64,000 bases of DNA, taken from positions 3,782 through 67,781 of the forward strand of contig VXNL01000079.1 of the NCBI GenBank assembly GCA_009840635.1. The letters are read 5' to 3'. The translations under genes were made by a program, and so were the position numbers. Every line of letters begins with the position of its first letter. The first letter of the stretch is position 1. Origin of the DNA: Acidobacteriota bacterium (lineage in GTDB: Bacteria > Acidobacteriota > Vicinamibacteria > Marinacidobacterales > Marinacidobacteraceae). The notes beneath the pieces were generated by a model. It made no database searches and had not been told where the DNA came from. It saw only the letters and a program-made list of their open reading frames with translations. Below, piece by piece: positions 8,788 through 41,303 of this stretch.

Positions 8788-10233
8788 CTACCCGAACACC
8801 ACCGGCACCCAGAAGACCGCGAACAGGCAGGTGAGGACCGCGCCGATGATGTTCACCCCGATGCCGGCGCGCACCATCTGAGGGATCGTGAAGTGTCCGG
8901 TTCCGAACACGATGGCGTTCGGCGGGGTGGCTGCGGGCAGCATGAATGCGCAGGAGGCGGCGACCGTCACCGGAAGCAGCAGCATCAGCGGCGGGATGCC
9001 GGCGCCCGTGGCGACGGCGGCCAGGATGGGCACCATCATCGCGGTCGACGCGAGGTTCGAGGCCAGCTCGGTGAGCAGGATGATGAACACCACCACCATG
9101 ATCACGAACAGCGGAAGCGGCAGCGCCGAAGCGCCGGCGAGACGGTCGCCCAGAAACTGGGACAGCCCGCTCACCTCCAGACCGTTCGCGAGCGAGAAGC
9201 CGCCGCCGATCAGGATCAGGACGTCCCAGGGAATCTTCACTCCCCATTCCCAGTTGAGGATGCGTTCCCCCGAGCCGTTCCCGGCGGGGACGAGGAAGCA
9301 CAGCACTGTCGCCGCCATGGCGATCGTGGAATCGCTGATGAGCCCGCCGGTCGGCAGGAACCCGGTCCAGACCGGGCGGAACATCCAGGCCAGGGCAGTG
9401 GCCCCGAACAGGACGGAGAGTCGCTTCTCCGGGGTGGAGAGCGGTCCGAGCGCCTGGTAGGCGGAGCGGACCGGCTCCCGGCCGCCGGGAATGTCCTTGA
9501 TCCGGATCGGAAACGCGACGCGGGTGAGCCAGAGCCAGGTCAGGGGGAGAAACAGGACCGTCAGCGGCATCGCGAAGGCGAGCCAGCGCACGAAGGTGAT
9601 CTGGATGTCCAGTTGCTCGCTCAGGAAACCGGCGAGGAACACGTTGGGCGGCGTTCCGATGAGGGTCGAGAACCCACCGATGGAGGCCCCGTAGGCGCAG
9701 CCGAGCATCAGGCAGACCGCGAACGGGAAATCCCCGGGGGCGGGCCGCCTGGGCCCGTGGACCGCCCTCGATATCTCCGCGATCACGGCGACCCCGATCG
9801 GCATCATCATCGCGGTGGTGGCCGTGTTGGAGACCCACATGGACAAGAACGCGGACGCCACCATGAAGCCGAGCACCAGCCGGGGAGGCGAGCTGCCCAT
9901 CGCCATCACCGTCCGGAGCGCGATCCGCCGGTGCAGGTTCCAGCGCTGCATCGCCTGGGCGATCATGAACCCGCCCAGGAAGAGGTACACGAGGTGGTTG
10001 GCGTAGGGCGCCGCCGCCCCCGCCGCGTTCGTGATCCCGAACGGCGGGAGGAGCGCCAGCGGCAACAGGGAGGTCACCGCCAGCGGCGCCGCTTCCGTAA
10101 CCCACCAGGTGGCCATGATCGCGGCCACCGCCAGCATCCGGCGCGCCTCGTCGGGAATGCCCGGGATCGGGACGACGGCGATGCCGACCAACAGGGCCAG
10201 CCCGAGGACGAGTCCGATCCGCTCGCGCTTCAT
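8788..10233 (-). CDS. DASS family (SLC13-like) sodium-coupled anion symporter
   Basis: A 481-aa polytopic membrane protein with the SNTATTAMMMP and PPNAIVFGTG hairpin motifs of DASS/CitT transporters. Confidence 0.85.
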   Translation of the reverse strand: MKRERIGLVLGLALLVGIAVVPIPGIPDEARRMLAVAAIMATWWVTEAAPLAVTSLLPLALLPPFGITNAAGAAAPYANHLVYLFLGGFMIAQAMQRWNLHRRIALRTVMAMGSSPPRLVLGFMVASAFLSMWVSNTATTAMMMPIGVAVIAEISRAVHGPRRPAPGDFPFAVCLMLGCAYGASIGGFSTLIGTPPNVFLAGFLSEQLDIQITFVRWLAFAMPLTVLFLPLTWLWLTRVAFPIRIKDIPGGREPVRSAYQALGPLSTPEKRLSVLFGATALAWMFRPVWTGFLPTGGLISDSTIAMAATVLCFLVPAGNGSGERILNWEWGVKIPWDVLILIGGGFSLANGLEVSGLSQFLGDRLAGASALPLPLFVIMVVVFIILLTELASNLASTAMMVPILAAVATGAGIPPLMLLLPVTVAASCAFMLPAATPPNAIVFGTGHFTIPQMVRAGIGVNIIGAVLTCLFAVFWVPVVFG

Positions 10234-10365: not shown

Positions 10366-13125
10366 CTATTGCTGGTCGGTCGTTTCCGGCTGGTACCCGA
10401 GGCTGAGGAGGTTCGCGAGCAGCCGGTAGGCCCCCGGCGTGCCGGCGGGAAGCTGTCGCCAGAGGCCGAGGCCGAGGTAGAGCCACCGGCCCTCGCCGTG
10501 GCGGGCCTCCACCAGGATGCCGCGCTTCTCCCCGGCGTTGTATTCAAAGGGGTCCTCGGAGGCGAGGAGGTCCCGGTAGGCGGGGTCCCCGCCCGGGGCC
10601 AGGAAATAGAGCCCGCGCTCCTGCACCCAGCCGGCCCAGTCGGAGTCGTCGATCCGGTTCGGCCCGGTGAAGGCCGGATGTTCCGGGATCAGGACCTGCA
10701 TCGGGGCGTCTTCGTCGGTGATCCGGCCCCGCCCGACCGAAATCGGATACGGCCCCCAGGGTCCGGAGTTGAACTCGAACTTGTTGTACTGGACGAGCAG
10801 GGTCCCGCCTCCGGCGACGTAGTCGAGCAGACGCTGGTTGTGCGTCCTGAGGTCGGGACGGGCCAGATACGCGCGCACCCCGAGGACGATGGTGTCGAAC
10901 CCCGAGAGGTCCCCCTCGGCGAGCGCCGCCTCGTCCAGGAAGGTCAGAGGCACTCCGAGCTGCGCGATGGCCTCGGCGACTTCGTCCCCGACCCCCTCGA
11001 CGTAGCCGACGTGGACCGGGGCGACCGCCGCGTCCAGTACCCGCGCCGCGGCTACCGCCGGTCGGAAGAGGTAGCGCGTCTCGATGTGGTGGTAGGCGAT
11101 CTCCTGAACCGTTTCGGTGAACGGGTCGCCGCCTTCCGCGGGCTGCGCCGAAGCGGCGAGCCGGTAGCCGCCGTCGGCCGCTCCGGCCGGAGCGCTCACT
11201 TCGAACTCGACGCGGGTTTCACCCGGGCCGTAAAAAGCGACCGGAATGCGTTCCGGGGCAACGGCCCACCCCGCGGGGGCCTCGAGCACCGCGTCGAACT
11301 CCGCCGCGCCGTCCCCGCGATAGACGACGGAGACGCCGAGCCGGCGGGGGTTCTGCCCGCGGGGAAAGACGACGATCTCGGGTGACACGGCGACCGAAGC
11401 GAGCGGGAGCACCGAGATCTCCTTCTGTTTCTCCGTGCCCACCCAGGGTCCCTCGTAGCGGTACTCGACCGGCGTCGAGATCTCGACGGGAACGCCGGCG
11501 GACTCGAAGACAACGCGCGCCCTGACCTGGGGCGGTCGGGCCGACAGAGCGAACAGCTCCTCCGACAGCGGGTCGAAGCGGTCCGCGTCGGGGTCGTCGA
11601 GCCAGGGCTGGCGGCTCAGGGCCGCGTTCTCGGCCACCGAGACCCCGAACTCCGCGCGCAGCGGGCGGCGGGAGCTCGTTTCGAGAGGCAGGTCGCCGGG
11701 GCCGATCGCCGGGGTCGGGGCGCGGCGGCGGGGGCCCGGGCGAGAAGGGACCGCTGTCGTGGCCGGTGAGGCATCGACCTCCCAGCCCTCCGGGACCTCG
11801 ATGTGGATGCCGGTCACGGTCGCGCCTTCGACGGGTCCTCCACGGACGAAGACCTGGGCGGCGAACCGGGCGCCCGGAACGGCGGTTCCGGTGTCCGCCA
11901 CCGCGTCCACCACGAGTCCGTGGGCGAGCGCGATCGCCTCCTGGATCTGGGCCGTCCGCGGCGCCATCCGGTGCTCGATCTCCGCGCGGCTCTCAGCGGC
12001 CAGTCCCTCCGGCAAGGTGTCCCGGCGCAGACCCTTGGCGGCTGCGAGCGCCCTCCTGAGGCCGGGCAGCGAGTCCTGGGGCGCGGTCGCCGAGAAGGCG
12101 CTCGTAGCTTCCTCCACCGCCTCGCGCAGGGAGTCCAGTCGTTCGCGGGTCACGGCTGCGGCCTCCGGCGTCCCCGCGACGAACGCTTCCAGCCGCTCGA
12201 GTCCGGTCGGAATCCCGGCGAAGAGACCGTCCGTCCCTTCCGGTCCAAGCGCCGTTCCGTCCTCCGCGCCGCGGGTCTCGACGAGTTCCGCAGGAAATCC
12301 GCTCGGTGCGCCGCGCACCTGGCCCATCCCCTGGCACCGGTGGGCCGAACGCGCCTCCGCTCCGAGGTCGGCGTACGTGCGGCCGAGGAGCGGATCCCAG
12401 ACCGCCGTCTCCACCCGTACGGTGCGGGTTTCCCGGGAAACCGGACTGCCGCCCACGCCGCCGATCAGCAGGCGCACCGGCCGCCAGGGCAGCAGGCCCA
12501 ACCCGGCATGCTCCGGGAAGCGGGCCGGATCGTCCGCCACGTCGAAAGCCTCGTGCACAAGCCGTCCCGTCGCCTGGTGGTGTTGGCCCCCGCCGGTACC
12601 GGAAGGAGGCAGAGTGAGCACCACGTCCGGACGGAACATCCGGATCAACCGCACCACCTCGCCGAGCGTCTTCTCCTCGTCCCACTTCTCGAGCGTCTCT
12701 TCGACGCTGAAGGAGTAGCCGAAGTCGGACACCATGCCGAAGTACTGCTCCACGGCGTCGAGCCGGTGAGAGGTGAGAAGCTCTTCGGTGCGCAGGATGC
12801 GCAGCCCGTCGAAGAGTTCGGGTCCGATTTCGTTCTGTCCGCCGCCGCCCCGGGTCAGGCTCACGAGCGAGACCCGGGCGCCCAGGCCGCGGCTGAGCAG
12901 GGCGTGGAGGGCGTTGTTCTCGTCGTCCGGGTGCGCCACGATGGTGAGCACCGAAACGCCGCTCCCGATCTTGCGGAGCGCGAGTCCGAGTCCGGTGGCG
13001 CCCCGGTCCTCGGCGAGGGGCCGGAGCTGTGCGGGCGCAACGGCGGCGCTGAAAGCGACGATCGCCGCCGTCAACAGCGCCAGGGGCCGAAGCGCGAACC
13101 GCCGCGCCGGTCGTGAAGTTGTCAT
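10366..13125 (-). CDS. Secreted PIG-L/LmbE-family deacetylase fused to a ThuA/class-I-amidotransferase-like C-terminal domain
   Basis: It has a signal peptide and the AHPDDE motif of LmbE deacetylases near the N-terminus. The C-terminus (TIVLGVRAYL...GGTLLVQYNKF) is ThuA-like. Length is 919 aa. Confidence 0.8.
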   Translation of the reverse strand: MTTSRPARRFALRPLALLTAAIVAFSAAVAPAQLRPLAEDRGATGLGLALRKIGSGVSVLTIVAHPDDENNALHALLSRGLGARVSLVSLTRGGGGQNEIGPELFDGLRILRTEELLTSHRLDAVEQYFGMVSDFGYSFSVEETLEKWDEEKTLGEVVRLIRMFRPDVVLTLPPSGTGGGQHHQATGRLVHEAFDVADDPARFPEHAGLGLLPWRPVRLLIGGVGGSPVSRETRTVRVETAVWDPLLGRTYADLGAEARSAHRCQGMGQVRGAPSGFPAELVETRGAEDGTALGPEGTDGLFAGIPTGLERLEAFVAGTPEAAAVTRERLDSLREAVEEATSAFSATAPQDSLPGLRRALAAAKGLRRDTLPEGLAAESRAEIEHRMAPRTAQIQEAIALAHGLVVDAVADTGTAVPGARFAAQVFVRGGPVEGATVTGIHIEVPEGWEVDASPATTAVPSRPGPRRRAPTPAIGPGDLPLETSSRRPLRAEFGVSVAENAALSRQPWLDDPDADRFDPLSEELFALSARPPQVRARVVFESAGVPVEISTPVEYRYEGPWVGTEKQKEISVLPLASVAVSPEIVVFPRGQNPRRLGVSVVYRGDGAAEFDAVLEAPAGWAVAPERIPVAFYGPGETRVEFEVSAPAGAADGGYRLAASAQPAEGGDPFTETVQEIAYHHIETRYLFRPAVAAARVLDAAVAPVHVGYVEGVGDEVAEAIAQLGVPLTFLDEAALAEGDLSGFDTIVLGVRAYLARPDLRTHNQRLLDYVAGGGTLLVQYNKFEFNSGPWGPYPISVGRGRITDEDAPMQVLIPEHPAFTGPNRIDDSDWAGWVQERGLYFLAPGGDPAYRDLLASEDPFEYNAGEKRGILVEARHGEGRWLYLGLGLWRQLPAGTPGAYRLLANLLSLGYQPETTDQQ

Positions 13126-13238
13126 TGCCGCGCTCTCCTCGGGGGATTCGGGAGCCAGTCCTCCTAGAATCTCCGCGCCCGGGCCGGTCAGCGCCCGGCC
13201 CCGCCAGTGAGTCTAGCCGGGACTCCGCCGGAGCACCG

Positions 13239-13376
13239 ATGGAAACGCCTTCCGACCAGCCCCCCTCTCCAGGCGGGTTCTTCCGCTCCTGGCGGCGGCT
13301 CTACGCGGCGGTACTCCTGACCGCGCTCTCCGTTTACGTCCTTCTCTTCGCGTTCTCGCGGATCTTCGCCCCTTAG
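13239..13376 (+). CDS. Small single-TM protein, putative SSF-transporter small subunit (DUF3311/DUF4212-like)
   Basis: A 45-aa ORF, METPSDQPPSPGGFFRSWRRLYAAVLLTALSVYVLLFAFSRIFAP. It ends 9 nt before the SSF permease start. Confidence 0.4.
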   Translation: METPSDQPPSPGGFFRSWRRLYAAVLLTALSVYVLLFAFSRIFAP

Positions 13377-13385
13377 GCGTCCTCC

Positions 13386-15104
13386 TTGCAGCTCCTCGAC
13401 TGGATCGTCGTCGCGGCCTACTTCGGGCTGATCATCACCGTCGGCTACTGGACGGGGCGGGGGAACCGGGGCCTCGAGGACTACTTCCTGGCTCGCCGCT
13501 CGATGCCTTGGTACGCGATGGGCCTCTCGGTGATGGCCACGCAGGCGAGCGCCATCACGCTGGTGGGCACGACCGGCCAGGCCTACGTGGACGGGATGCG
13601 TTTCATCCAGATCTACTTCGCCCTGCCGATCGCCATGGTGATCCTGTGCGTCACCCTGGTGCCGCTGTTCTACCGGGCGAGGGTCTTTACCGCCTACGAG
13701 TACCTGGAGCGGCGGTGCGGTCCGCACACCCGGTCCCTCACCAGCCTGCTCTTCCTCTTCGGGAGGGCGCTTTCCGGGGCGGTGGTGATCTACGCGCCGT
13801 CGGTGGTCCTCTCGGTGGTCTTCTCGCTCGACGAGACGCTCACCATCCTGATCATCGGCGGCTTCGCCACGGTCTACACCGCGCTCGGGGGCATGCGCGC
13901 CGTGATGTGGGTCGAGACCTGGCAGATGCTGATCATCCTGCTCGGCATCCTGTTCTGCCTCGGGTCGGTCATCTGGGGGCTGCCCGACGAGGTGAGTCTC
14001 GGGGAGGCGCTGCGGCTCGCCGGTTCCACCGGCCGCCTGGAGACCCTGTCCTTCGACACCGACCCGCGCCAGACCTACACCGTCTGGACGGGGCTCCTCG
14101 GCGGGCTCTTCCTGATGCTCTCCTACTTCGGTTGCGACCAGAGCCAGGTCCAGCGCTATCTCACCGGGCGTTCGCTCCGCGAGAGCCGGCTTTCGCTGAT
14201 CTTCAACGCCTTCGCCAAGCTGCCGGTGCAGTTCGTGATCCTGCTCACCGGGGCGCTCCTCTTCGTCTTCTACCAGTTCGAAAGGCCGCCGGTGCTCTTC
14301 GATCCGGTGACGCTCGCCGAGACGCGCGCGGCCGAGCCCGAGGCGATGGCGGCCATGGAAGCCCGCTATGAGACCGCGTTCGCCGAACGCCGCACGGCCG
14401 CGCTCGACTACGCGGAGGCGGACGGCGGTTCCTCCGAGGCGGCGCTGAAGGAGCGCTACGTGGCGGCCGACCTGGCGTTCCAGGAGACGCGCGCCGATGC
14501 GGTCCGCACTGCGGCCGAGGTCAAGGGCGAACCCTGGACCGACACGAACCACGTGTTCCCGACCTTCGTGTTCACGCAGCTCCCCCCGGGGGTCGTCGGC
14601 CTGATCCTCATCGCAGTGCTCGCGGCGGCGATGTCCACCGTGGAGTCGGAACTGTCGGCGCTCTCGACCGCCAGCGTGGTGGACTTCTACCGCCGGTTCC
14701 GGAACCGATTCGTGCGTGGCCCCACGTCCGACCGCCATGACCTGATCGCGGGGCGGGTGGGGATCCTGTTCTGGGGGACGGTCGCCACCGGGGCCGCCCT
14801 GTACATGGGGAGGCTCGGGTCCGCGGTGGAAGCGGTGAACCGGGTGGGGTCCTTCTTCTACGGCCCCATCCTGGGGGCGTTCGTCCTCGCCGCCGTCTTC
14901 CCGAACCGGGGCGCTCGCCGCGCCTTCCCGGCGGTGATCTGCGGCGTCGCCGCCGTCTGGGCCGCGGACCTGGTCCCCCGGGCGCTCGGCATCGAGGGTG
15001 TTTCCTACCTCTACTACAACCTGATCGGAACCGCCGTCACCGTGGGGGTCGGTCTGTTTCTGGGGCGCTTGGGGGGCGATCCGCGGGAGGCCGGGATCCG
15101 ATGA
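13386..15104 (+). CDS. Sodium:solute symporter family (SSF) transporter
   Basis: A 572-aa membrane protein with SSF topology, using a TTG start per the ORF track. It has a large cytoplasmic loop. Confidence 0.85.
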   Translation: MQLLDWIVVAAYFGLIITVGYWTGRGNRGLEDYFLARRSMPWYAMGLSVMATQASAITLVGTTGQAYVDGMRFIQIYFALPIAMVILCVTLVPLFYRARVFTAYEYLERRCGPHTRSLTSLLFLFGRALSGAVVIYAPSVVLSVVFSLDETLTILIIGGFATVYTALGGMRAVMWVETWQMLIILLGILFCLGSVIWGLPDEVSLGEALRLAGSTGRLETLSFDTDPRQTYTVWTGLLGGLFLMLSYFGCDQSQVQRYLTGRSLRESRLSLIFNAFAKLPVQFVILLTGALLFVFYQFERPPVLFDPVTLAETRAAEPEAMAAMEARYETAFAERRTAALDYAEADGGSSEAALKERYVAADLAFQETRADAVRTAAEVKGEPWTDTNHVFPTFVFTQLPPGVVGLILIAVLAAAMSTVESELSALSTASVVDFYRRFRNRFVRGPTSDRHDLIAGRVGILFWGTVATGAALYMGRLGSAVEAVNRVGSFFYGPILGAFVLAAVFPNRGARRAFPAVICGVAAVWAADLVPRALGIEGVSYLYYNLIGTAVTVGVGLFLGRLGGDPREAGIR

Positions 15105-16971: not shown

Positions 16972-17481
16972 ATGACATCACCTTCACTCCTGGAAAAGGC
17001 AACGGATGTTCCCAAGATGATTGCCATGCAAGCAGTCAAGCCCTTGCGTCTCATGTTGCGTGAGCCGTTGGATTACCCAAACACTCAAGGAGAGCTGGCT
17101 GCTTTGGTGGACAACGCGCTTGCTCATGAGATCCGTGCCGGGTTTACGCACCGCTTCATCACCTTGTTGTTCGTCACCGTGGGTGAGCGGGTGTTCTGTC
17201 GTCGCTACCAATACACCGAACCATCGTGGCACAGCGTGTTCCGAGCCAATCCGGCAGGTCAGATAAGGCTCGACAAGACCGTTGTAAACATCACGGCCCA
17301 GGTTCCAGACGATCTGAGCGACACCCTTCCGGCCATTGATGCGAGCTATGCAGCCAAGCTCAAACAGCTGGGCGCGCGTTTTCTGTTGGAAGGAGCGGTG
17401 GAACCGCGAGCCCAGGAAAGCACGCTGGAACTGATGCTGGCGCCCGGGCCGGCGATCACCGACCGGATCGACAGACAGTGA
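16972..17481 (+). CDS. DUF2255 family protein (split-barrel / PNPOx-like)
   Basis: The core VTVGERVFCRRYQYTEPSWHSVFRANPAGQIRLDKTVVNITAQV and the C-terminal IDASYAAKL match the DUF2255 pattern. It lies in a roughly 56% GC patch. Confidence 0.55.
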   Translation: MTSPSLLEKATDVPKMIAMQAVKPLRLMLREPLDYPNTQGELAALVDNALAHEIRAGFTHRFITLLFVTVGERVFCRRYQYTEPSWHSVFRANPAGQIRLDKTVVNITAQVPDDLSDTLPAIDASYAAKLKQLGARFLLEGAVEPRAQESTLELMLAPGPAITDRIDRQ

Positions 17482-19172: not shown

Positions 19173-19574
19173 ATGCCCCGAACCAACACCCTGTCTCCCG
19201 AGGTCCGGGAGTTCCTGGCGACCCGCTGCTACGTCCACCTGGCCACCCTGATGGCCGACGGCAGCCCCCAGGTCTCCCCGGTCTGGGCGGAGACCGACGG
19301 AGACCTCATCGTGGTCAACTCGGCGGCCGGTCGGGTCAAGGACCGGAACATCAAGCGCGACGCCCGGGTCGCGCTCTCCGCGACCCATCCGGAGGACCCG
19401 TTCAAGGCGCTCATGATCCGGGGCCGGGTGGTGAAGGTCACCGAGGACGGCGCCGAGGACGGGATCGACCGCCTCGCCCGGAAGTACATCGGCGGCGAGC
19501 GCTACGAGTGGCGGCGTCCGGGCGAAGTGCGGGTCGCCTACTACATCCAGCCGGAGACCGTAAAGACGCTCTAA
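19173..19574 (+). CDS. Pyridoxamine 5'-phosphate oxidase family (PPOX-class) protein
   Basis: A 133-aa protein with the pattern CYVHLATLMADGSPQVSPVW...LIVVNS. An RBS GGAG lies upstream. Confidence 0.75.
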   Translation: MPRTNTLSPEVREFLATRCYVHLATLMADGSPQVSPVWAETDGDLIVVNSAAGRVKDRNIKRDARVALSATHPEDPFKALMIRGRVVKVTEDGAEDGIDRLARKYIGGERYEWRRPGEVRVAYYIQPETVKTL

Positions 19575-19580
19575 CGCGTC

Positions 19581-19623
19581 GGAGCGCCGGCCTCTGGCCG
19601 GCATCGCGGCCCGGGAGGGCCGC
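19581..19623 (+). repeat. REP-like element, family 2 (GGAGCGCCGGCCTCTGGCCGGCATCGC plus GGCCCGGGAGGGCCG hairpin)
   Basis: It starts 7 nt after the PPOX stop. The same element occurs after stop codons at 20.6, 30.9, 32.9 and 39.8 kb. Confidence 0.75.
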
Positions 19624-19746
19624 GAAACGGGACCTCACTGCCCGCGCAGACGGCAGGAACGCGTCGGAGGATCGGCCTTCGGCCGGCCCGGCTTTCCATG
19701 GGTACGAAGCACCAGACGGGCTGGACGCCGAGGTGCCATCGTTTGT

Positions 19747-19773
19747 GGTATTTTTCTTACCATGGTAACTACC
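19747..19773. promoter_or_regulatory. Cluster of GGTA/TACC inverted half-sites, including the perfect palindrome TTACCATGGTAA over the vapB start codon; candidate VapB operator
   Basis: GGTA-N7-TACC, TTACCATGGTAA (19757-19768) and GGTA-AC-TACC are read directly from the sequence. They overlap the ATG at 19762. Confidence 0.5.
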
Positions 19774-20034
19774 ATAGATTCTGCCGGCCGGTTGGTCATT
19801 CCGAAGACGATCCGAGAAGCGGCGGGACTCGGAGCCGGTACACGGGTCCATCTGCGACTCGAATCCGACCGGGTGGTTGTGGAACCGGCGCCGCTTTCCG
19901 TAACCCTTGAGCAACGTGGGACGATGGTCGTGGCGGTGGCGCCTCCGGGAACGCCGCAAATGAAGGCGTCGGACGTTGCTCGCACGATCGAGGAACTGCG
20001 GGGGATGGATCCCTCGGCGGATCCGATGGCGTGA
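19762..20034 (+). CDS. vapB: AbrB/SpoVT-fold antitoxin
   Basis: IDSAGRLVIPKTIREAAGL...VVVEP is a looped-hinge-helix motif. Length is 90 aa. It overlaps the vapC start. Confidence 0.8.
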   Translation: MVTTIDSAGRLVIPKTIREAAGLGAGTRVHLRLESDRVVVEPAPLSVTLEQRGTMVVAVAPPGTPQMKASDVARTIEELRGMDPSADPMA

Positions 20035-20465
20035 CCCGTTACCTGTGCGACACCAGCGTCCTGGTCGCCTCCCTCTGCGACTGGCATCAGCACTACAGCC
20101 TTTCGCGTAACGAGATCCTTGGGCGAACTCAAGCTGGACAGGAACTCGTACTTGCGGCGCACTCGTTGGCCGAGACGTACGCAGTACTGACGCGGCTACC
20201 GGGGCACTACCGACTTCCGCCTGAGGCTGCCATCGCTCTCATTCAACGGAACTGGCTCGAGACGCCAACCATCCACCTCGATGGGCGCGAAGTCTGGGAT
20301 GCCCTGGGTGAGGCGTATCGTCAGGGAGCGACCGGGGGCCGAACGTACGACCTGCTCATCGCCCACTGTGCGATCAAGGCCGGTGCTTCCGCCTTGGTGA
20401 CCTGGAACCTTCGGCACTTCGCCGCCTTCGCAAACAGACTGAACGTCGTGACGCCAGCGGGTTGA
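20031..20465 (+). CDS. vapC: PIN-domain toxin
   Basis: It begins YLCDTSVLVA (acidic D). A Glu lies in the LAETYAVL region, followed by DLLIAHCAIKAGASALVTWNLRHF. The GTG start overlaps the vapB stop (GTGA). Confidence 0.8.
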   Translation: MTRYLCDTSVLVASLCDWHQHYSLSRNEILGRTQAGQELVLAAHSLAETYAVLTRLPGHYRLPPEAAIALIQRNWLETPTIHLDGREVWDALGEAYRQGATGGRTYDLLIAHCAIKAGASALVTWNLRHFAAFANRLNVVTPAG

Positions 20466-20593
20466 CTGGTGCCGAGTTCGCAGAGCGTGAGGGGGATGCG
20501 TCGGCGGGGAATCTCCCGGCTGGCGACGAATGTCCGCTCCGTCCGGCGGGCGTCTGCGGCGGCCGTGGAAGCCGGGGGCGCCTGGGTACGCAG

Positions 20594-20639
20594 TTTCGCC
20601 CGCCTTCGGCGGACGATGCCGGCCGGAGGCCGGCGCTCC
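20594..20639 (-). repeat. REP-like element, family 2, inverse orientation (GATGCCGGCCGGAGGCCGGCGCTCC) plus CCGCCTTCGGCGG hairpin
   Basis: Its reverse complement is GGAGCGCCGGCCTCCGGCCGGCATC. It lies 13 nt downstream of the minus-strand SDR stop. Confidence 0.7.
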
Positions 20640-20652
20640 GAATCGGCGTTCC

Positions 20653-21381
20653 CTATCCGGGGGCGTCCACGACGGAGCCGCTCATCGAAGCTGGGGCCTC
20701 ACTGCCGAGCCAGACGATGACGTCGGCCACCGCCTCGGGCGCGGACCGCGGTTTGGCGCCGGGTATGGCGGTTCGATAGGACTCGGTATCCACTGACCCG
20801 GGACAGACGGCGAAGACCGAGATCCCGGCCGGCCGCAGCTCCTCCGCGGCAGCCTTGGTGAGGCCCACGACGCCCCACTTGGAGGCGCAGTAGGCGGCGA
20901 GGCGGGGTGCGCCGATCCGTCCGGCCATGGCCGCGAGGTTCACGATGCGGCCTTGCCGCCGCTCGATCATGCCGGGGAGCACGGCGCGGGTGCAGAGGAA
21001 CGTCCCCTTCAGGTTTACGCCGAGAACGCTGTCGAAGTCCGCATCGGACGTCGAGGTCAACGGGGCCCGGTGGACGGCGCCGGCGGCGTTGACCAGCAGC
21101 TCGACGGGACCCAGGCGGCGCTCCGTCTCCTGCACGAGTTCGGCGACCTGACCCGGCTCGGTGACGTCAGTCGGCGCCACAAACGCGTGGCCGCCCGCCT
21201 GGCGAATCCGGTTCTGCACGGCAACCAGCCCCACCGGACGCCGCGCCGCGATGCCGACGGCGAAACCGCGTTCGACCAGTTTCAGCGCCGTGGCCGCTCC
21301 GATCCCCTGACTCGCGCCGGTGACGATGGCTACGGATAGTCCGGCCGGGCCGGAGGCGGCAGGTTGCGCGGGCGCCGTCAT
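20653..21381 (-). CDS. Short-chain dehydrogenase/reductase (SDR)
   Basis: It has the TGASQGIG Rossmann motif, NAAG, and the YCASK catalytic Tyr-Lys. Confidence 0.9.
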   Translation of the reverse strand: MTAPAQPAASGPAGLSVAIVTGASQGIGAATALKLVERGFAVGIAARRPVGLVAVQNRIRQAGGHAFVAPTDVTEPGQVAELVQETERRLGPVELLVNAAGAVHRAPLTSTSDADFDSVLGVNLKGTFLCTRAVLPGMIERRQGRIVNLAAMAGRIGAPRLAAYCASKWGVVGLTKAAAEELRPAGISVFAVCPGSVDTESYRTAIPGAKPRSAPEAVADVIVWLGSEAPASMSGSVVDAPG

Positions 21382-30852: not shown

Positions 30853-30864
30853 ACGGTCCGCCTC

Positions 30865-30906
30865 GGAGCGCCGGCCTCCGGCCGGCATCGCCCGCGCAGC
30901 GGGCGA
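30865..30906 (+). repeat. REP-like element, family 2 (GGAGCGCCGGCCTCCGGCCGGCATCGC plus CGCCCGCGCAGCGGGCG hairpin)
   Basis: It starts 12 nt after the katG stop, in the convergent gap with the carbonic anhydrase gene. Confidence 0.75.
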
Positions 30907-30921
30907 AACCCGCAACGCCCC

Positions 30922-31611
30922 TCAGCGCGCGTCGGTCACCAGCCGCCGCCCGTTCAGCGGCTGCACCGGCCGGTTGTTTACGGGGAAGAGCGCGCGGAAC
31001 GCCTCGATCTGTTCCCGCGAAGCCGTCACCGGCTCGCTCATCATCAGCCAGGACACGCCCTCGCTGCACGGCGGCGTGGTCAGCGAACCCGAATAGCGCC
31101 AGGTCGTCCGCCGCTCGGGCAGCAGCGCGGCGGCGTCCACCGTCCCCGCAACCAGCGCGGCAGGTCCCGCCTCCGCCGGCACGTGACGCCAGACCGGAGC
31201 GAGGGCCTCGTTCGCTGCGCCCTCCTCGAGAAACACGCCGACCACGGCGAGCGCACCATCGGCGTCCTCGTGAACCAGGTGCAGTTCCAGCGGAAAGTCC
31301 GCGCCGTCCACGGTGTGCTCGCTCCGGTGGTGGAAATGAAACTGGGTCAGTCCGTAGCGCGTTCCGTCGAGGACGATGCCGCTCCCGGCCTGGTAGTCCA
31401 CCTGGATGGTGTGGCCGTTGTTCTGGATGGAGATCGGGCTCGGCGCGTACTCGAAGCCGATCTCCGACAGGGCTTCCCGTTCGGCGCCCGTGAGGTCGAT
31501 CGGCGACTGCTCGCGGCCGCCCGTGCACACGGCGAACGCGGGGTCCAGCGAACCCCAGTGGTCAGGGCCGAGCTCGCCCTCATATCCCCAGTGCGGCCCT
31601 CCGGCGATCAT
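30922..31611 (-). CDS. Alpha-class carbonic anhydrase
   Basis: It has the QSPIDL and FHFHHRSEH zinc histidines and SGSLTTPPC. No N-terminal signal peptide is present in the called ORF. Confidence 0.85.
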   Translation of the reverse strand: MIAGGPHWGYEGELGPDHWGSLDPAFAVCTGGREQSPIDLTGAEREALSEIGFEYAPSPISIQNNGHTIQVDYQAGSGIVLDGTRYGLTQFHFHHRSEHTVDGADFPLELHLVHEDADGALAVVGVFLEEGAANEALAPVWRHVPAEAGPAALVAGTVDAAALLPERRTTWRYSGSLTTPPCSEGVSWLMMSEPVTASREQIEAFRALFPVNNRPVQPLNGRRLVTDAR

Positions 31612-31723
31612 GACTGCGTTCCGTTCAACATCGGTCCTTCGTCCCGCTGCGTAGTGTGTAATTGATCGCCTCCGTGTCCACGTCCAGGTGTGGCCGGGTC
31701 ACTGGGGAAGGAGGGAAGGGGTC

Positions 31724-32860
31724 ATGATCGAGTGGCTCGGCATCGGCCACCTGCTGGAGCTTTCCGGAACGGAGGCGGTTCTGGGGTTTCTTACCCCCCT
31801 GCTGGTCTTCGTCTTCTTCTTCGTGGCGCAGCTCATCCTGCCGGGACGGTGGGTTCCCGGCTACGTCGTCGATCCGAAGACCGGTGAGCCACGGAAGTAT
31901 CGGCTGAACGGCCTCCTGGTGTTCGTCATCGCCCTGGTTGTGTGGGCCTTCGAGCTCACCGGCATGCCCCGCGACTGGTTCTACCGGTCTTCGCTCTACG
32001 CCGTCGCCGGGGGAACCCTCCTCACCATCATCTTCACGATCCTCGCGGTGTTCAGCCAGCCGGAAGGCAGGGTCAAGAACCGGTTCCTGGCGTGGTGGTT
32101 CGGGCGGGCGCAGGAGCTGCAGTTCTTCAACCACCGCTTCGACGTGAAGATGTGGTTCTACGTCGTCGGCGGGACGATGCTGTCGCTGAACGCCCTGTCG
32201 GGGGCCGTCTACCACTATGAACTCTTCGGCGAGAACTCCAATCCGGGCGTCTTCGTGTACGCGGGGTTCTTCACGTTCTACGTGCTGGACTACTTCGTCT
32301 TCGAGCGCGTCCAGCTCTACACCTACGACCTGATCCACGAGAACGTCGGTTTCAAGCTCTTCTGGGGCGGCCTCATCGTCTACGGCTGGATGTTCATCCT
32401 CCCGCTCTGGGGCATGGCCGTCTACCCGCATCCGGGATTCTCGCCGGCGGCGACGAACGCTTGGCTCATCGGGACGGTGGCGATGTTCCTCTTCGGGTGG
32501 GGCATCTCGCGCGGCGCCAACCTGCAGAAGTACACGTTCAAGCGCTGGCCCGACCGCACGTTCCTGGGCATCGAGCCCGAGGTCATCGAGGCCGGCGACC
32601 GCAGGATCCTGTGCAGCGGTTTCTGGGGCGTCGCCCGTCACTTCAACTACCTGGGCGAGGGATTTCTGGGGCTGTCGATCGCCCTGATCTTCGGCCACTT
32701 CACAAACTTCTGGGCCTGGACCTACTTCATCTTCGTCGTCTCGATGTTCACCTACCGCCAACGGGACGACGACGCGCACTGCGCCCAGAAATACGGCCCC
32801 GAGAAGTGGGCGGAGTACCAGGCACGGGTGAAGTACCGGATCGTCCCCGGGATCTACTGA
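31724..32860 (+). CDS. ERG4/ERG24/DHCR7-family sterol reductase homolog
   Basis: Sterol reductase signature 2 is present (LCSGFWGVARHFNYLGE), as is the GANLQKYTFKRWPD motif. It is a polytopic membrane protein of 378 aa. An RBS GGAAGGGAGG lies upstream of ATG 31724. Confidence 0.8.
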   Translation: MIEWLGIGHLLELSGTEAVLGFLTPLLVFVFFFVAQLILPGRWVPGYVVDPKTGEPRKYRLNGLLVFVIALVVWAFELTGMPRDWFYRSSLYAVAGGTLLTIIFTILAVFSQPEGRVKNRFLAWWFGRAQELQFFNHRFDVKMWFYVVGGTMLSLNALSGAVYHYELFGENSNPGVFVYAGFFTFYVLDYFVFERVQLYTYDLIHENVGFKLFWGGLIVYGWMFILPLWGMAVYPHPGFSPAATNAWLIGTVAMFLFGWGISRGANLQKYTFKRWPDRTFLGIEPEVIEAGDRRILCSGFWGVARHFNYLGEGFLGLSIALIFGHFTNFWAWTYFIFVVSMFTYRQRDDDAHCAQKYGPEKWAEYQARVKYRIVPGIY

Positions 32861-38352: not shown

Positions 38353-39812
38353 CCGCCGAGCGGCTCCAGAAACTGATCGCGGCTGCCGGGATCGCCTCGC
38401 GGCGCGCCGCGGAACGGATGATCGCCGAGGGCCGGGTCACCGTGGACGGGGAGGTGGTCGGCGTTCCCGGGGTGCGCGCGGACCCGGCGCTCCAGGACAT
38501 CCGGGTGGACGGAGCCCGGCTCCGCAAGCTCGGCAAGCCCCGGCGCTACGTGATTCTCAACAAGCCCATCGGCCACCTGACGACCCGCTCGGACCCGGGA
38601 CGCCGTTCCACGGTGATGGATCTGCTGCCCCATTCGTTCCGCTCGCTGGTTCCGGTCGGGCGGCTCGACGGCAACAGCTCGGGACTCGTGCTGCTCACCG
38701 ACGACGGGGAGCTGGCGCAGCGGGTCACGCATCCGCGGTACCGGCTGCCGAAGACCTACTACGCCACCGTCCGGGGGCTTCCCGCCGAAGACGTGCTCGA
38801 GCGGGCGCAGCGCGGCGTCCGCGTCGATGGCGAGGGGCTGCGGCTCGACCAGGTCGAGGTCATCGCCCGTTTCCCGCACCGGGCGGAGTCGAAGCGCCGC
38901 GCGCGTCTCCGGGTCACCCTGCGGGGCGGGCGGAACCGGGAGATCCGGCGGGTGCTGAGCGTCCTGGGCCATCCGGTCCTCGAGCTGCACCGGACCCGGA
39001 TCGGCTCTCTCGCCGACACCGGGCTCACCCCCGGGGGCTGGCGCAAGCTGCGCGGCGACGAGGTGGACGAGTTGCGGGAGTTGATCCGGCGGTGCGCGGG
39101 CGAGCCGGCGGCGCCCGCCGAACCGGCTGATTCGGAACCGGCAGTTCCTGCCGCCCGGCCCGCGGCCGCGGCATTCGTGGTGGCGATCGACGGGCCGGCG
39201 GGGTCCGGCAAGACGTCCGTGGCGCGCGCGGTCGCCGAACGTTTCGAACTCGGTTACTTCAACACCGGGGCGTCGGTGCGCGCGGTGGCGCTCGCGGCGA
39301 TGCGGCAGGACATGGATCTCGACGAAGGCCCGTCCCTCAGGACCCTCGCCTTCCGGGTGATCCTCGATCCGGAAGGCCGCGTCTTCCTCGACGGCGAAGA
39401 TGTCTCCCAGGCCGTCCGCGCGCCCGAGGTCTCCGCCGGCGCCTCCCGCGTCGCCGTCCACCCCGAGCTGCGCGAGGTCCTGGTGGAGCGTTGGCGGCAG
39501 TTCGCGGCGGGCGGCGGCGTGGTCGAGGGCCGGGACATCGGCACTGTGGTCTTCCCCGAGGCGCCGGTGAAGGTCTTTCTGGACGCGCGGCCGGAGATCC
39601 GGGCCCGGCGCCGCTCCTCGGACGAGGGAGACCGCGACGTGGGCGCCGTCCAGTCCGAACTCCGCCACCGTGACCACACCGACTCCGGCCGGGCGGTGGC
39701 TCCCCTCCGCCGGGCGGAGGACGCCCACCATCTCGACACCAGCGACCTCACGCTCGAGGAAACGGTGGAGCGGGTGGCGGAACTGGTGGAAACGGCGCGA
39801 TCTCAAGCCTGA
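38349..39812 (+). CDS. In-frame fusion: S4-domain RluB/RsuA-type pseudouridine synthase plus cytidylate kinase
   Basis: The N-terminal half carries an S4 domain and a pseudouridine synthase catalytic region (VGRLDGNSSGLVLLTDDG). A Pro/Ala linker follows. The C-terminal half carries the Cmk P-loop (AIDGPAGSGKTSVARAVAERF). A single 487-aa ORF has no internal stop. Confidence 0.75.
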   Translation: MTAERLQKLIAAAGIASRRAAERMIAEGRVTVDGEVVGVPGVRADPALQDIRVDGARLRKLGKPRRYVILNKPIGHLTTRSDPGRRSTVMDLLPHSFRSLVPVGRLDGNSSGLVLLTDDGELAQRVTHPRYRLPKTYYATVRGLPAEDVLERAQRGVRVDGEGLRLDQVEVIARFPHRAESKRRARLRVTLRGGRNREIRRVLSVLGHPVLELHRTRIGSLADTGLTPGGWRKLRGDEVDELRELIRRCAGEPAAPAEPADSEPAVPAARPAAAAFVVAIDGPAGSGKTSVARAVAERFELGYFNTGASVRAVALAAMRQDMDLDEGPSLRTLAFRVILDPEGRVFLDGEDVSQAVRAPEVSAGASRVAVHPELREVLVERWRQFAAGGGVVEGRDIGTVVFPEAPVKVFLDARPEIRARRRSSDEGDRDVGAVQSELRHRDHTDSGRAVAPLRRAEDAHHLDTSDLTLEETVERVAELVETARSQA

Positions 39813-39816
39813 CGCT

Positions 39817-39900
39817 CCGAGCGCCGGCCTCTACTGCGCCGGGAGGCGCCGCCGGCTTGGAACGCCGGCTTCAGCCGGCACAGCGGCCCGCAGGGCCGCG
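39817..39900 (+). repeat. Composite REP: degenerate family-2 element (GAGCGCCGGCCTC...) followed by a family-1 unit (GGCTTGGAACGCCGGCTTCAGCCGGCACAGC plus GGCCCGCAGGGCC)
   Basis: It starts 5 nt after the rluB-cmk stop. It forms the left boundary of the low-GC island. Confidence 0.75.
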
Positions 39901-40094
39901 GGCGACGTGCCGTCATTTGCCTTGGGCGACTGAGGTCCGGGAACGTTCCGCCTGCTCGTTTGGACCGAGAGAAGCCCCTCTTCCGACAGGTCAGCGTTGC
40001 GACGCCATTGATTTATCGAATGTCCAGGACGGGTTCGAGTGTCCGAATGTCGATTCCCGTGTCGGAGACCTCCCGCGCGACGTGAGGCCAACAA

Positions 40095-40637
40095 TCAAAA
40101 GGCATCCGCTTCGGGCAACCGCAGAATGCTCCAATTCTCCCGATAGGCGTCAAGCCAGCCCGATCGATACCGATCAAGCGTCTTCCTTCCTTTCTCCGTG
40201 ATCGGCTTGATGTTCGAGTAGTCGGGTAACAGCCGACGCACGTCGCTGTCCTTGTGTGGCTGACCTGCTTTGCCGGGAGTGTCGAGCCACACTTGGTGGC
40301 AGTCGCGAATACAGGCCGCCACCACGCTGGAGGGAAGGACGTAGCAAACCGTCGTATCGGACGGCTGTTTGCCGACGTCGACTAAGACGTAGAACAGATC
40401 GTCGGCGACCATGGTCGCGTGCCTAGCCCTCATGTGCCAGCCCTTGTCGCCTCCGATGCCACGTCGCGTCTTTACTTGGATGGCACACAACTTCTTGGAG
40501 TTCTTGTCGGTGACCAGGATGTCCATGTTCGGTGCCCCATCCGGTGCGAGGGCCGCAATCCAGCCACGCCGCAACAACTGACTGAGCACGTGATACTCGC
40601 CGGCGGCGCCGACGATAGTCGAACTGATCTTGTGCAT
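40095..40637 (-). CDS. Mrr-cat / PD-(D/E)xK-like (Hjc-like) nuclease-fold protein
   Basis: GAAGEYHV (E), NMDILV (D) and CAIQVK (QxK) are spaced as in Mrr/Hjc catalytic cores. It lies in a lower-GC patch. The ATG at 40635 is preferred. The track ORF extends to 40700. Confidence 0.55.
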   Translation of the reverse strand: MHKISSTIVGAAGEYHVLSQLLRRGWIAALAPDGAPNMDILVTDKNSKKLCAIQVKTRRGIGGDKGWHMRARHATMVADDLFYVLVDVGKQPSDTTVCYVLPSSVVAACIRDCHQVWLDTPGKAGQPHKDSDVRRLLPDYSNIKPITEKGRKTLDRYRSGWLDAYRENWSILRLPEADAF

Positions 40638-40748
40638 CGGGTCAGAGCGGTCCTTCAGGCGGAGGTTCAACGGTACGGGGTTCTGACGCCAGTGAGGCAC
40701 AGAACAGGACGTCCACCCCGAGCGTGGCGCGCCTCCCGAGGCTTTGAA

Positions 40749-41303
40749 TCAGGACGAACGCCTCGATGCGGGCCCGAAGAGACTCCCCGGGGCCGCTTTC
40801 TGCGCATCGGCGCCGTTGCTGTCGAGAACGAAACGCGCCCGCTCGGCACGTAGCATGGCAAAGGGCGTCACGCATTTGACGCCGAGACCGATGCATACGT
40901 TGGGGATCTTGATTCTCCTTGGTGTATCGGCGGGCACCTCGTGCGTTACGACCGCGTGTCCCCCGGTCAGGGCCTGACCGACCAAGTAGTAGTCGGCGGC
41001 CTGCAGGAACGAGTTGATCGCCGCCGGGTCGTACGACTGCTCCCTTACCCATTCGCTTACTCGTTCCAATGACGGCAAGTCGGCTGCCTGAGGCAGGACG
41101 AAGAACTCCGGACCTCGCTGCTTGGCCCACTCCCGAAGTTCGTCGTCCGAGGCACCGATTTCGTCGCCCACTTTGTCGATACTGCGCACCAGCCCGCGGG
41201 CGTGGCCGACCACGATCCAATCCCAGAAGCCAGGACAGAAGTCGAAACCGTAGTGAAGGTTCTTCGCAGCGATCAGGACATTGGCGTCCAGGAGGTAGGC
41301 CAT
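40749..41303 (-). CDS. DUF4411 PIN-like domain protein (putative toxin/effector)
   Basis: The N-terminal MAYLLDANVLIAAKN is a PIN motif, followed by GFWDW. Downstream acidic residues lie in ADYYLVGQAL...VVTHE, then KIPNVC. The start overlaps the upstream gene stop (TGATG). Confidence 0.6.
   Translation of the reverse strand: MAYLLDANVLIAAKNLHYGFDFCPGFWDWIVVGHARGLVRSIDKVGDEIGASDDELREWAKQRGPEFFVLPQAADLPSLERVSEWVREQSYDPAAINSFLQAADYYLVGQALTGGHAVVTHEVPADTPRRIKIPNVCIGLGVKCVTPFAMLRAERARFVLDSNGADAQKAAPGSLFGPASRRSS

Follow-up and report, generated by a model that had tools for sequence, protein, structure and literature searches.

This study concerns a vapBC toxin-antitoxin (TA) gene pair in a 64,000-nucleotide (nt) stretch of contig VXNL01000079.1 of an Acidobacteriota bacterium; this whole stretch is hereafter referred to as the window. 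The pair lies in the gap between two convergent genes that encode an F420-type oxidoreductase (PPOX) and a short-chain dehydrogenase (SDR). Our analysis suggests, with a probability of roughly 0.7, that the two genes form a functional VapBC system which represses its own expression, that the cassette is an old, dispensable and recombining resident of the PPOX/SDR gap occurring in two haplotypes, and that the inversely oriented REP2 repeats on both sides are elements of the PPOX and SDR 3' ends. The reading as an old, dispensable and recombining resident is based on the mixed states of the gap among relatives, a cassette type that is discordant with the flanks, a chimeric VapB, synonymous divergence (dS) similar to that of the flanking genes, and purifying selection on both genes.

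The gene pair encodes an intact VapBC system

The gap extends from position 19572 to 20655, with PPOX on its left (plus strand) and SDR on its right (minus strand), and vapB and vapC are located exactly where an initial annotation of the window had placed them, including their 4-nt overlap (Table 1). The overlap, GTGA, joins the vapB stop to the GTG start of vapC and is the same in all eight vapBC-bearing lineages described below. Residues 2-43 of VapB were identified as an AbrB/MazE/SpoVT DNA-binding domain (PF04014, MazE_antitoxin/AbrB, 1.4e-8; NCBIfam TIGR01439, 8.7e-11) and VapC as a PIN protein (PF01850, 2.3e-9; 38.4 bits versus a cutoff of 23.6), both Pfam matches exceeding the gathering scores. 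VapB consists of an AbrB/SpoVT swapped-hairpin DNA-binding domain (residues ~1-46) and a toxin-specific C-terminal part (~47-90). An AlphaFold2 model of VapC, built from 28 homologues, reached a mean confidence (pLDDT) of 94.6, and the top Foldseek matches of this model in the PDB were all VapC toxins, namely VapC20 and VapC26 of Mycobacterium tuberculosis, the Salmonella and Shigella VapC proteins and VapC2 of Rickettsia felis, at template modelling (TM) scores of 0.66-0.78 and 15-22% identity. When the PDB was searched by sequence, the VapC family profile found nothing at E<=0.01, and VapB yielded AbrB/SpoVT matches only, which were weak.

The acidic triad of VapC, D7/E48/D107, is invariant in alignments of 26-28 homologues, and close to the C-terminus the proteins share the motif T124-W125-N126-x-R128-[H/N/D]129-F130, with H at position 129 in the window. 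Both open reading frames (ORFs) have the lengths of their homologues (90 amino acids (aa) for VapB, 143-144 aa for VapC). Within cassette types, the ratio of nonsynonymous to synonymous divergence (dN/dS) was 0.15-0.36 across both genes, both types and eight lineages (by gene, 0.15-0.26 for vapB and 0.23-0.33 for vapC), and both genes are therefore under purifying selection. Fold, catalytic triad and selection agree, together with the domain assignments, that the pair is an intact vapBC, as had been stated in the initial annotation. No paralogues of the two proteins were found within the 64-kb window.

The gene calls on public contigs that are identical to the window leave out vapB. Since automatic annotation misses the gene even there, vapB-like antitoxins of this kind are under-annotated. 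Likewise, vapB is uncalled on several contigs that carry it (among L001-L003, L085, L086 and L094-L096), and elsewhere its N-terminus has been extended, to give a protein of 111 aa in L087 and one of 150 aa in L004, the latter running from the contig start. The missed calls are probably due to the absent ribosome-binding site.

Table 1. Positions of the vapBC cassette, its candidate control elements, flanking genes and REP2 copies in the window.
Feature	Position	Strand	Remarks
PPOX	19173-19574	+	F420-type oxidoreductase, TIGR03618 3.6e-30; stop TAA 19572-19574
REP2 after PPOX	19573-19628	+	hairpins GCCGGCC-TCT-GGCCGGC and GCGGCCC-GGGA-GGGCCGC, then GAAAC; -37.9 kcal/mol, z -2.6
REP2-like degenerate copy	19658-19690	+	AACGCGTCGGAGGATCGGCCTTCGGCCGGC; 83% identical to first copy, spacing 85 nt; -19.5 kcal/mol, z -1.0
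Candidate box 1, TGCCAT	19734-19739		about -28 to -23 from ATG, in promoter spacer; TGCCAT or reverse complement ATGGCA in 29 loci
Candidate box 2, (G/A)TGGTA	19745-19750	+	ATGGTA at -17 to -12 in homologous loci
Predicted extended -10, TGG-TATTTT	19746-19754	+	TGGTATTTT; overlaps box 2; hexamer ends 7 nt before ATG
Perfect 12-bp palindrome	19757-19768		TTACCATGGTAA; box 3 plus extra TGGTA from codon 2 (GTA)
Candidate box 3, TACCAT	19758-19763		last two bases are the first two of the start codon
vapB (antitoxin)	19762-20034	+	90 aa, ATG start, AbrB/SpoVT type
Candidate box 4, TACCAT	19770-19775		vapB codons 4-5 (Thr-Ile); ACCAT invariant in 29 loci
vapC (PIN toxin)	20031-20465	+	144 aa, GTG start
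3' spacer	20466-20593		type-A-specific; ~20486-20528 85-86% identical to L085; ~20533-20560 (GTCCGCTCC...) common to type B
REP2 after SDR	20594-20648	-	inverse; begins 4-5 nt past SDR stop; -32.9 kcal/mol
SDR	20653-21381	-	short-chain dehydrogenase, adh_short 1.3e-56; stop 20653-20655
REP2 after KatG	30863-30890		KatG stop 30852
REP2 after ERG4/ERG24-like gene	32863-32890		gene stop 32860

The PPOX/SDR gap in related genomes

A metagenome scaffold (ENA ERZ23491992) proved to be identical (100%) to the window over 18.8 kb. Species-representative genomes were scanned with the neighbouring Dtd protein, which identified nine syntenic loci of 74-93% identity in Acidobacteriota metagenome-assembled genomes labelled Vicinamibacteria, 'Candidatus Marinacidobacterium' or Acidobacteria. 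The window proteins were then mapped onto these loci and onto contigs with close VapC homologues, which gave the synteny of 14 lineages. Comparing the presence and absence of vapBC among relatives, as had been suggested in the initial annotation, revealed a variable locus. The identical site is occupied by vapBC in eight of the 12 informative lineages, among them L007 and L090, which are the most divergent. Four of these, the window, L085, L088 and L090, carry a cassette which we refer to as type A (VapC 79-88% identical to that of the window), while L005, L015, L006 and L007 carry a type B, whose VapC and VapB are 46-52% and 52-67% identical, respectively, to those of type A. The two types are alike in architecture, with a 90-aa VapB, a GTG start of vapC and a 4-nt overlap. 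The gap is empty in L008 (388 nt) and L010 (431 nt), where it contains REP-like repeats, and in L011 and L012 it holds an Amidohydro_3-like gene, vapBC being absent; the same gene is also found beside vapBC in L090 and L007. No remnant of VapB or VapC was matched by tblastn in L008 and L010 at E<=1e-8, a search that was neither relaxed nor repeated at the nucleotide level, and no promoter or operator motif was seen on reading these two gaps. According to the initial annotation, the same cassette with native GC in all relatives would argue for an ancient resident; relatives do carry a cassette, in agreement with an ancient resident, but it is not always the same one, not all of them have it, and native GC content at third codon positions (GC3) was never found.

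The type of the cassette does not track the phylogeny of the flanks. Of all pairs, L088 (type A) and L015 (type B) are the most alike in their flanks (94.5% at the nucleotide level; SDR 97.8%, YjbQ 98.0%), whereas their VapC proteins share only 46% identity. Sliding comparison of the window with L015 gave identities of 90-98% in PPOX, 80-94% in the upstream REP region and 83-93% in the promoter, followed by a drop from 80% to 57% within the 5' part of vapB, 45-70% throughout the 3' half of vapB and vapC, and again 80-97% in SDR. The two types diverge only between about codon 15 of vapB and the stop of vapC, and the dimorphic segment is therefore bounded inside vapB on the left and at the 3' end of vapC on the right. 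The VapB of L090 is a particularly clear case: its residues 1-46 are 91% identical to type B of L007 and 65% to the window, whereas for residues 47-90 the window is the closer match (86%, versus 41% for L007). Because of this chimera, the DNA-binding and the toxin-specific halves of VapB are likely to recombine independently, and the C-terminal half follows the toxin type (75-86% identity within type A, 36-52% between types). The breakpoint inside the antitoxin, between its DNA-binding and its predicted toxin-binding half, illustrates the shuffling of TA modules.

In within-type comparisons, dS was 0.11-0.93 for the cassette and 0.06-0.65 for the flanks. The corresponding values were 0.22-0.23 and 0.19-0.26 for the window versus L085, 0.52-0.54 and 0.10-0.25 for the window versus L088, and 0.11-0.13 and 0.28-0.36 for L005 versus L015. 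Taken together, these comparisons point to a long-standing resident that may have been exchanged repeatedly and lost at least three times, and not to a recent arrival.

A recent horizontal insertion into a convergent gap bounded by two terminator-like REPs, which is how the initial annotation had explained the cassette, is the alternative that has to be considered first, and we regard it as unlikely. In its favor, GC3 is 0.66 in vapB and 0.72 in vapC and ranges from 0.85 to 0.96 in 12 of 13 other genes measured, the lone exception being a DUF2255 gene (0.665) that is itself variable. The lower-GC segment described in the initial annotation is real in direction, but its GC content is 63.1% instead of the roughly 60% given there (69.7% for the whole window; 3rd percentile among 704-nt windows). 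Furthermore, the close relatives L008 and L010 have an empty gap, that of L010 retaining the SDR-side inverse REP2, and outside the clade type A VapC has its nearest relatives in other phyla, at different loci. However, a recent insertion is difficult to reconcile with the occurrence of vapBC at the identical site in eight lineages as divergent as L007 and L090, with the dS of 0.22-0.9 between type-A cassettes, which is similar to that of the flanks, or with the upstream REP region and promoter, which are 80-94% identical to those of type-B loci. Neither were signs of insertion observed: no target-site duplication was found and the junctions showed no direct repeats, no integrase, transposase or recombinase gene is present among the neighbouring gene calls, and a scan for tRNA and tmRNA genes marking an integration site found none. 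Viral contigs contained no relative of the cassette family, plasmids only seven distant homologues (31-41% identity), and the PADLOC defence models gave no match. As, in addition, REP2 is uncoupled from the cassette (see below), the earlier view of a cassette dropped into a REP-defined gap could not be upheld.

Three further observations were made in and beside the gap. Within SDR, the 5' third (21098-21381) shares 97-100% identity with L085 and 60-75% with L088, L005 and L015, compared to 80-97% in the remainder of the gene, and these values mark it as a separate recombination tract beside the cassette. In L007, about 2.5 kb of lower-GC DNA (12055-14557) separates PPOX from vapB; it contains two ORFs (195 and 290 aa) without Pfam matches as well as a second, fragmentary copy of PPOX (14289-14507, 47% aa identity), all of which points to an insertion at the 3' end of PPOX. 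Finally, an ORF of the DUF433 family lies on the opposite strand just 3' of vapC in the type-A contigs L093 (1172-1423, 83 aa) and L092 (793-1044), and a similar DUF433-like ORF seems to be present in type-B L006 (~13040-13270, minus strand). This ORF may be another antitoxin-like gene of the PPOX/SDR gap.

A conserved promoter region with a candidate operator

In the initial annotation, GGTA/TACC elements around the vapB start codon had been proposed as plausible autorepression sites of VapB or VapBC. Both spaced elements, GGTA (19747-50)-N7-TACC (19758-61) and GGTA (19764-67)-AC-TACC (19770-73), exist exactly as described. For comparison, we aligned the upstream regions of the clade loci, of homologous loci from other phyla and of 80 metagenome loci retrieved by the VapC profile, reduced to 29 non-redundant sequences in the common register M-x-x-T-I-D. 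The homologous loci of this alignment sit in unrelated genomic contexts, and most loci show next to no information content before about -30, where it begins to rise in blocks (TG.CA at -28 to -24, ATGGTA at -17 to -12, TAnnnT at -13 to -8, whose T at -8 completes TGn-TAnnnT, T.CC-ATG, and ACCAT at +10 to +14). These blocks correspond to four hexamers, designated boxes 1-4, and a predicted extended -10 element (Table 1). Boxes 2 and 3 form an inverted repeat, TGGTA-N7-TACCA, and the spacing of the boxes in the window is 11, 13 and 12 bp; 11-13 bp is about one helical turn. TGGTA/TACCA occurs 29 times in the 64 kb, with four copies within 29 nt only at the vapBC start, while a Poisson model predicts ~8e-5 such four-half-site clusters in the entire window. 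Because the hexamer array is conserved at the same distances from the ATG in 29 loci of unrelated context, the GGTA/TACC cluster is very likely an autoregulatory region, and the earlier proposal thus gained support. In contrast, the perfect 12-bp palindrome, which the initial annotation had also reported, is present but not conserved: it requires GTA as codon 2, which only L085 retains, and the other relatives have AGT, ACT, CCT, ACC or GCT.

It might be argued that the cluster is no operator at all, being a mere by-product of the extended -10, of a start-codon context that is favoured (ACC-ATG) and of the codons for Thr-Ile (ACC-AT) in the conserved N-terminus of VapB. Boxes 2, 3 and 4 match exactly these three features, box 4 also being constrained as coding sequence by the conserved T-I-D motif, and the additional palindrome arm of the window arises from a non-conserved Val codon. 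We nevertheless consider this explanation improbable, since box 1 (TGCCAT/ATGGCA) is conserved within the promoter spacer, where neither the -10 nor the start codon nor coding constraint offers an explanation. In addition, the boxes, at their spacing of 11-13 bp, flip their orientation and keep their position: box 2 reads TACCAT instead of ATGGTA in L108/L112, and box 3 reads ATGGT-ATG instead of TACCAT in L128/L135/L137. Such flips in place are expected of half-sites for a dimeric binder and not of promoter or coding constraint. It is also known that AbrB-type VapB proteins bind palindromic sites which overlap their own promoters (PMC3378870, PMC3326315).

No Shine-Dalgarno sequence is present in any of the 29 aligned loci, and the window has no in-frame start upstream of 19762. 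A leaderless, autorepressed operon is supported by the conserved array, by the extended -10 and by the missing Shine-Dalgarno sequence. A promoter and terminator scan of 19400-20800 gave no match. The window has no counterpart to the TTGnnn that some members from other contexts carry 17 nt before the -10 (~ -36 to -31 from the ATG).

Proposed mechanism and its weighing

We propose that vapBC is controlled by a compact region (~19730-19775) which the operon carries with it. Transcription would most likely start at or next to A19762, because 7 nt separate the extended -10 from the ATG and a Shine-Dalgarno sequence is absent, and would yield a leaderless bicistronic mRNA on which translation of vapC may be coupled to that of vapB through the GTGA overlap. 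VapC would act as a PIN-domain ribonuclease toxin that, when free, cleaves RNA; the C-terminal half of VapB would neutralise it and the N-terminal AbrB/SpoVT domain would bind DNA. The four hexamers extend from the promoter spacer across the -10 and the start site into codons 4-5. VapB dimers, linked to each other by VapC dimers, might occupy boxes 1-4 and occlude both the extended -10 and the start site. This occupancy and the resulting shut-off of the promoter are suggested by analogy to the characterised systems discussed below. The cassette (~19730-20530) is pictured as a resident of the PPOX/SDR gap in a clade of marine, Vicinamibacteria-like Acidobacteriota, where the deeply diverged haplotypes A (that of the window) and B (~50% VapC identity) would share one promoter-operator. 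The haplotypes may have been swapped among lineages by homologous recombination in the conserved flanking DNA and in the 5' part of vapB, and at times they may have been lost.

Several points weigh against this reading. GC3 of the cassette is 0.66-0.82 in every lineage, compared to 0.81-0.93 for PPOX, and a truly old resident would not be expected to keep such a difference, unless codon selection is weak or genes are still being exchanged with an outside pool. Type A VapC is closer to a broad 143-aa family from unrelated loci of other phyla (55-61%) than to type B (46-50%), and thus at least one of the types must once have come from outside. The 'species tree' was inferred only from six flanking genes, which are themselves mosaic. 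Many PIN domains carry a fourth, less conserved acidic residue near the C-terminus; in the present subfamily this position is not conserved, N126 being invariant and position 129 being H, N or D. With respect to the promoter, no -35 is recognisable in the window, which explains why a consensus sigma-70 scanner reported no promoter there. Finally, boxes 2-4 coincide with the -10, the start codon and the Thr-Ile codons, and their conservation is in part otherwise caused.

A more far-reaching version, which we regard as quite improbable, would be a trans-species balanced polymorphism of VapBC alleles which do not neutralise each other and share a common operator at a fixed chromosomal site. If this were true, an allele replaced through homologous recombination would set off post-segregational toxicity, so that the locus would serve as an allele-exclusion or gene-flow barrier or as a kin-discrimination device in these Acidobacteria, and the shared DNA-binding domain and promoter would provide the recombination handle. 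It is very unlikely that the cassette has lost its function and is decaying: it is dispensable, being absent from L008, L010, L011 and L012, the public gene calls skip vapB on identical contigs and the fourth PIN acidic residue is unconserved, but both ORFs are of full length, the catalytic residues do not vary, dN/dS stays at 0.15-0.36 in eight lineages and the promoter-operator is conserved. Hardly credible is a mobilisation of the cassette by the inverted REP2 pair as a composite element, either of the kind of miniature inverted-repeat transposable elements or dependent on a REP-associated transposase, because, despite the 27/28 complementary arms on both sides of the cassette (19579 and 20614), single REP2 copies follow the stops of unrelated genes (30863 and 32863), the downstream arm occurs without the cassette in L010 and the cassette without the arm in L005 and L015, homologous cassettes of other phyla are found in unrelated contexts, and the junctions showed no direct repeats.

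REP2 repeats at the 3' ends of genes

Each REP2 is made up of two hairpins in succession. The first has an unchanging stem, GCCGGCC/GGCCGGC, while the stem of the second varies in sequence between copies and is always completely paired. The inverse REP2 pair reported in the initial annotation was readily recovered, its arms at 19579-19606 (plus) and 20614-20641 (minus) being complementary in 27 of 28 positions; the SDR-side copy has the same first hairpin as the PPOX-side copy and a second stem that differs, yet is fully paired. Overlooked at that time was a third, degenerate REP2-like copy at 19658-19687. Altogether, the window holds five REP2 copies, all of which are intergenic and located 3-11 nt past stop codons, and the four good ones are oriented with the gene strand and fold at -33 to -38 kcal/mol. 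REP2 has no T-run, and the terminator scan of 19400-20800 was negative. As an Rfam scan of the whole window at gathering thresholds matched no family, REP2 is not a curated RNA. REP2 resembles the repetitive extragenic palindromic (REP) sequences and bacterial interspersed mosaic elements (BIMEs) in being a short, GC-rich, imperfect multi-copy palindrome that follows stop codons, often at convergent gene ends, and forms stable hairpins; unlike these, it has two consecutive hairpins with a covarying second stem and no match in Rfam.

The SDR-side inverse REP2 is kept in L088 and in the empty site of L010, one of the two empty sites, and is missing in type-B L005/L015, where vapC ends ~50 nt from the SDR stop. 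The PPOX-side REP region is conserved in type-B L005/L015, but is unrelated, and thus replaced, in type-A L085. Because REP2 is present in the empty site of L010, absent at L005/L015 and replaced in L085, it does not travel with the cassette. The inverse pair is therefore best explained as one 3'-end element for each of the two convergent genes, and REP2 would belong to the 3' ends of the flanking genes and not mark a cassette boundary. A mobile cassette with defined ends was likewise rejected, as the REP arms are uncoupled from the cassette and the neighbouring calls include no integrase or transposase domain.

Some additional observations concern the repeats themselves. The gap of L008 (12036-12423) is made up of two tandem ~200-nt repeats which hold a different REP type (GGAACGCCGGTCTCCAGACCGGCAC). 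The REP2 copies behind KatG and the ERG4/ERG24-like gene start exactly 2000 nt apart (30863 and 32863) and bracket a gene for an alpha-type carbonic anhydrase (30922-31611, minus strand) together with a lower-GC patch (31601-32855, ~62%). L002, a strain-level contig of 99.7% identity, differs from the window only inside both REP2 hairpins (9525-9580 and 10590-10600 of L002); the two indels were dismissed as assembly artefacts, one being an N-run with scaffold junk and the other a 6-nt loss from a hairpin loop.

Comparison to known VapBC systems and significance

AbrB-type VapBC systems repress their own promoters via inverted repeats over the -10 and -35 regions, and in Salmonella VapC strengthens this binding (PMC3378870). 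The enteric systems, Salmonella LT2 STM3033/3034 and MvpAT of Shigella plasmid pMYSH6000, similarly have an AbrB-type VapB upstream of a PIN VapC, and their operators are inverted repeats that overlap promoter elements, with VapB autorepression being enhanced by VapC (PMC3378870, PMC3384007). The fold of the enteric VapC matches the model of the window VapC at a TM score of ~0.7, sequence identity being merely 18-20%. Unlike the enteric loci, the window locus has four hexamer boxes that reach into the coding region and no Shine-Dalgarno sequence; the latter implies a leaderless transcript, again in contrast to enteric VapBC. In R. felis VapBC2 (PDB 3zvk), two VapB dimers occupy adjacent major grooves of a ~27-bp near-palindromic promoter fragment (PMC3326315). 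This footprint is similar in size to boxes 2-4 of the window, which span 29 nt, whereas the operator sequences differ, being AT-rich TA(A/G)TATATA in R. felis and ATGGTA/TACCAT in the window, and VapC identity is again ~18-20%. The top structural matches, VapC20 and VapC26 of M. tuberculosis (E values of 6e-6 to 9e-6, TM scores of 0.71-0.77, 19-20% identity), are likewise small stand-alone PIN toxins of chromosomal TA pairs; their antitoxins and RNA targets (for VapC20 the sarcin-ricin loop, according to the PDB title) are not transferable to the VapC described here.

The locus defines a widespread VapBC subfamily with a VapC of ~143 aa, an AbrB-type VapB of ~90 aa and no PDB relative detectable by sequence, whose apparently leaderless promoter-operator with its ATGGTA/TACCAT boxes is precisely conserved. 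It also provides a natural example of a single orthologous site that has two deeply diverged TA haplotypes as well as empty alleles. The window locus itself is a textbook chromosomal VapBC, and it is common for such autoregulated pairs to sit in variable intergenic sites of chromosomes.

Other low-GC genes in the window

The DUF2255 gene mentioned above (16972-17481), situated 2.3 kb upstream of vapBC, has a GC content of 57.5% and a GC3 of 0.665, compared to ~0.9 in its neighbours. At its position, L085 has a gene of the AAA-ATPase_like/PDDEXK_9 type on the opposite strand and L088 has nothing, and the DUF2255 gene is thus another variable, foreign-looking gene. Further downstream, a PIN-like DUF4411 gene (40749-41303) abuts an IrrE/Peptidase_M78-like gene (41303-42451), both on the minus strand and in a low-GC patch (39751-41355, down to 59%). 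These two genes possibly form a second toxin-antitoxin-like pair.

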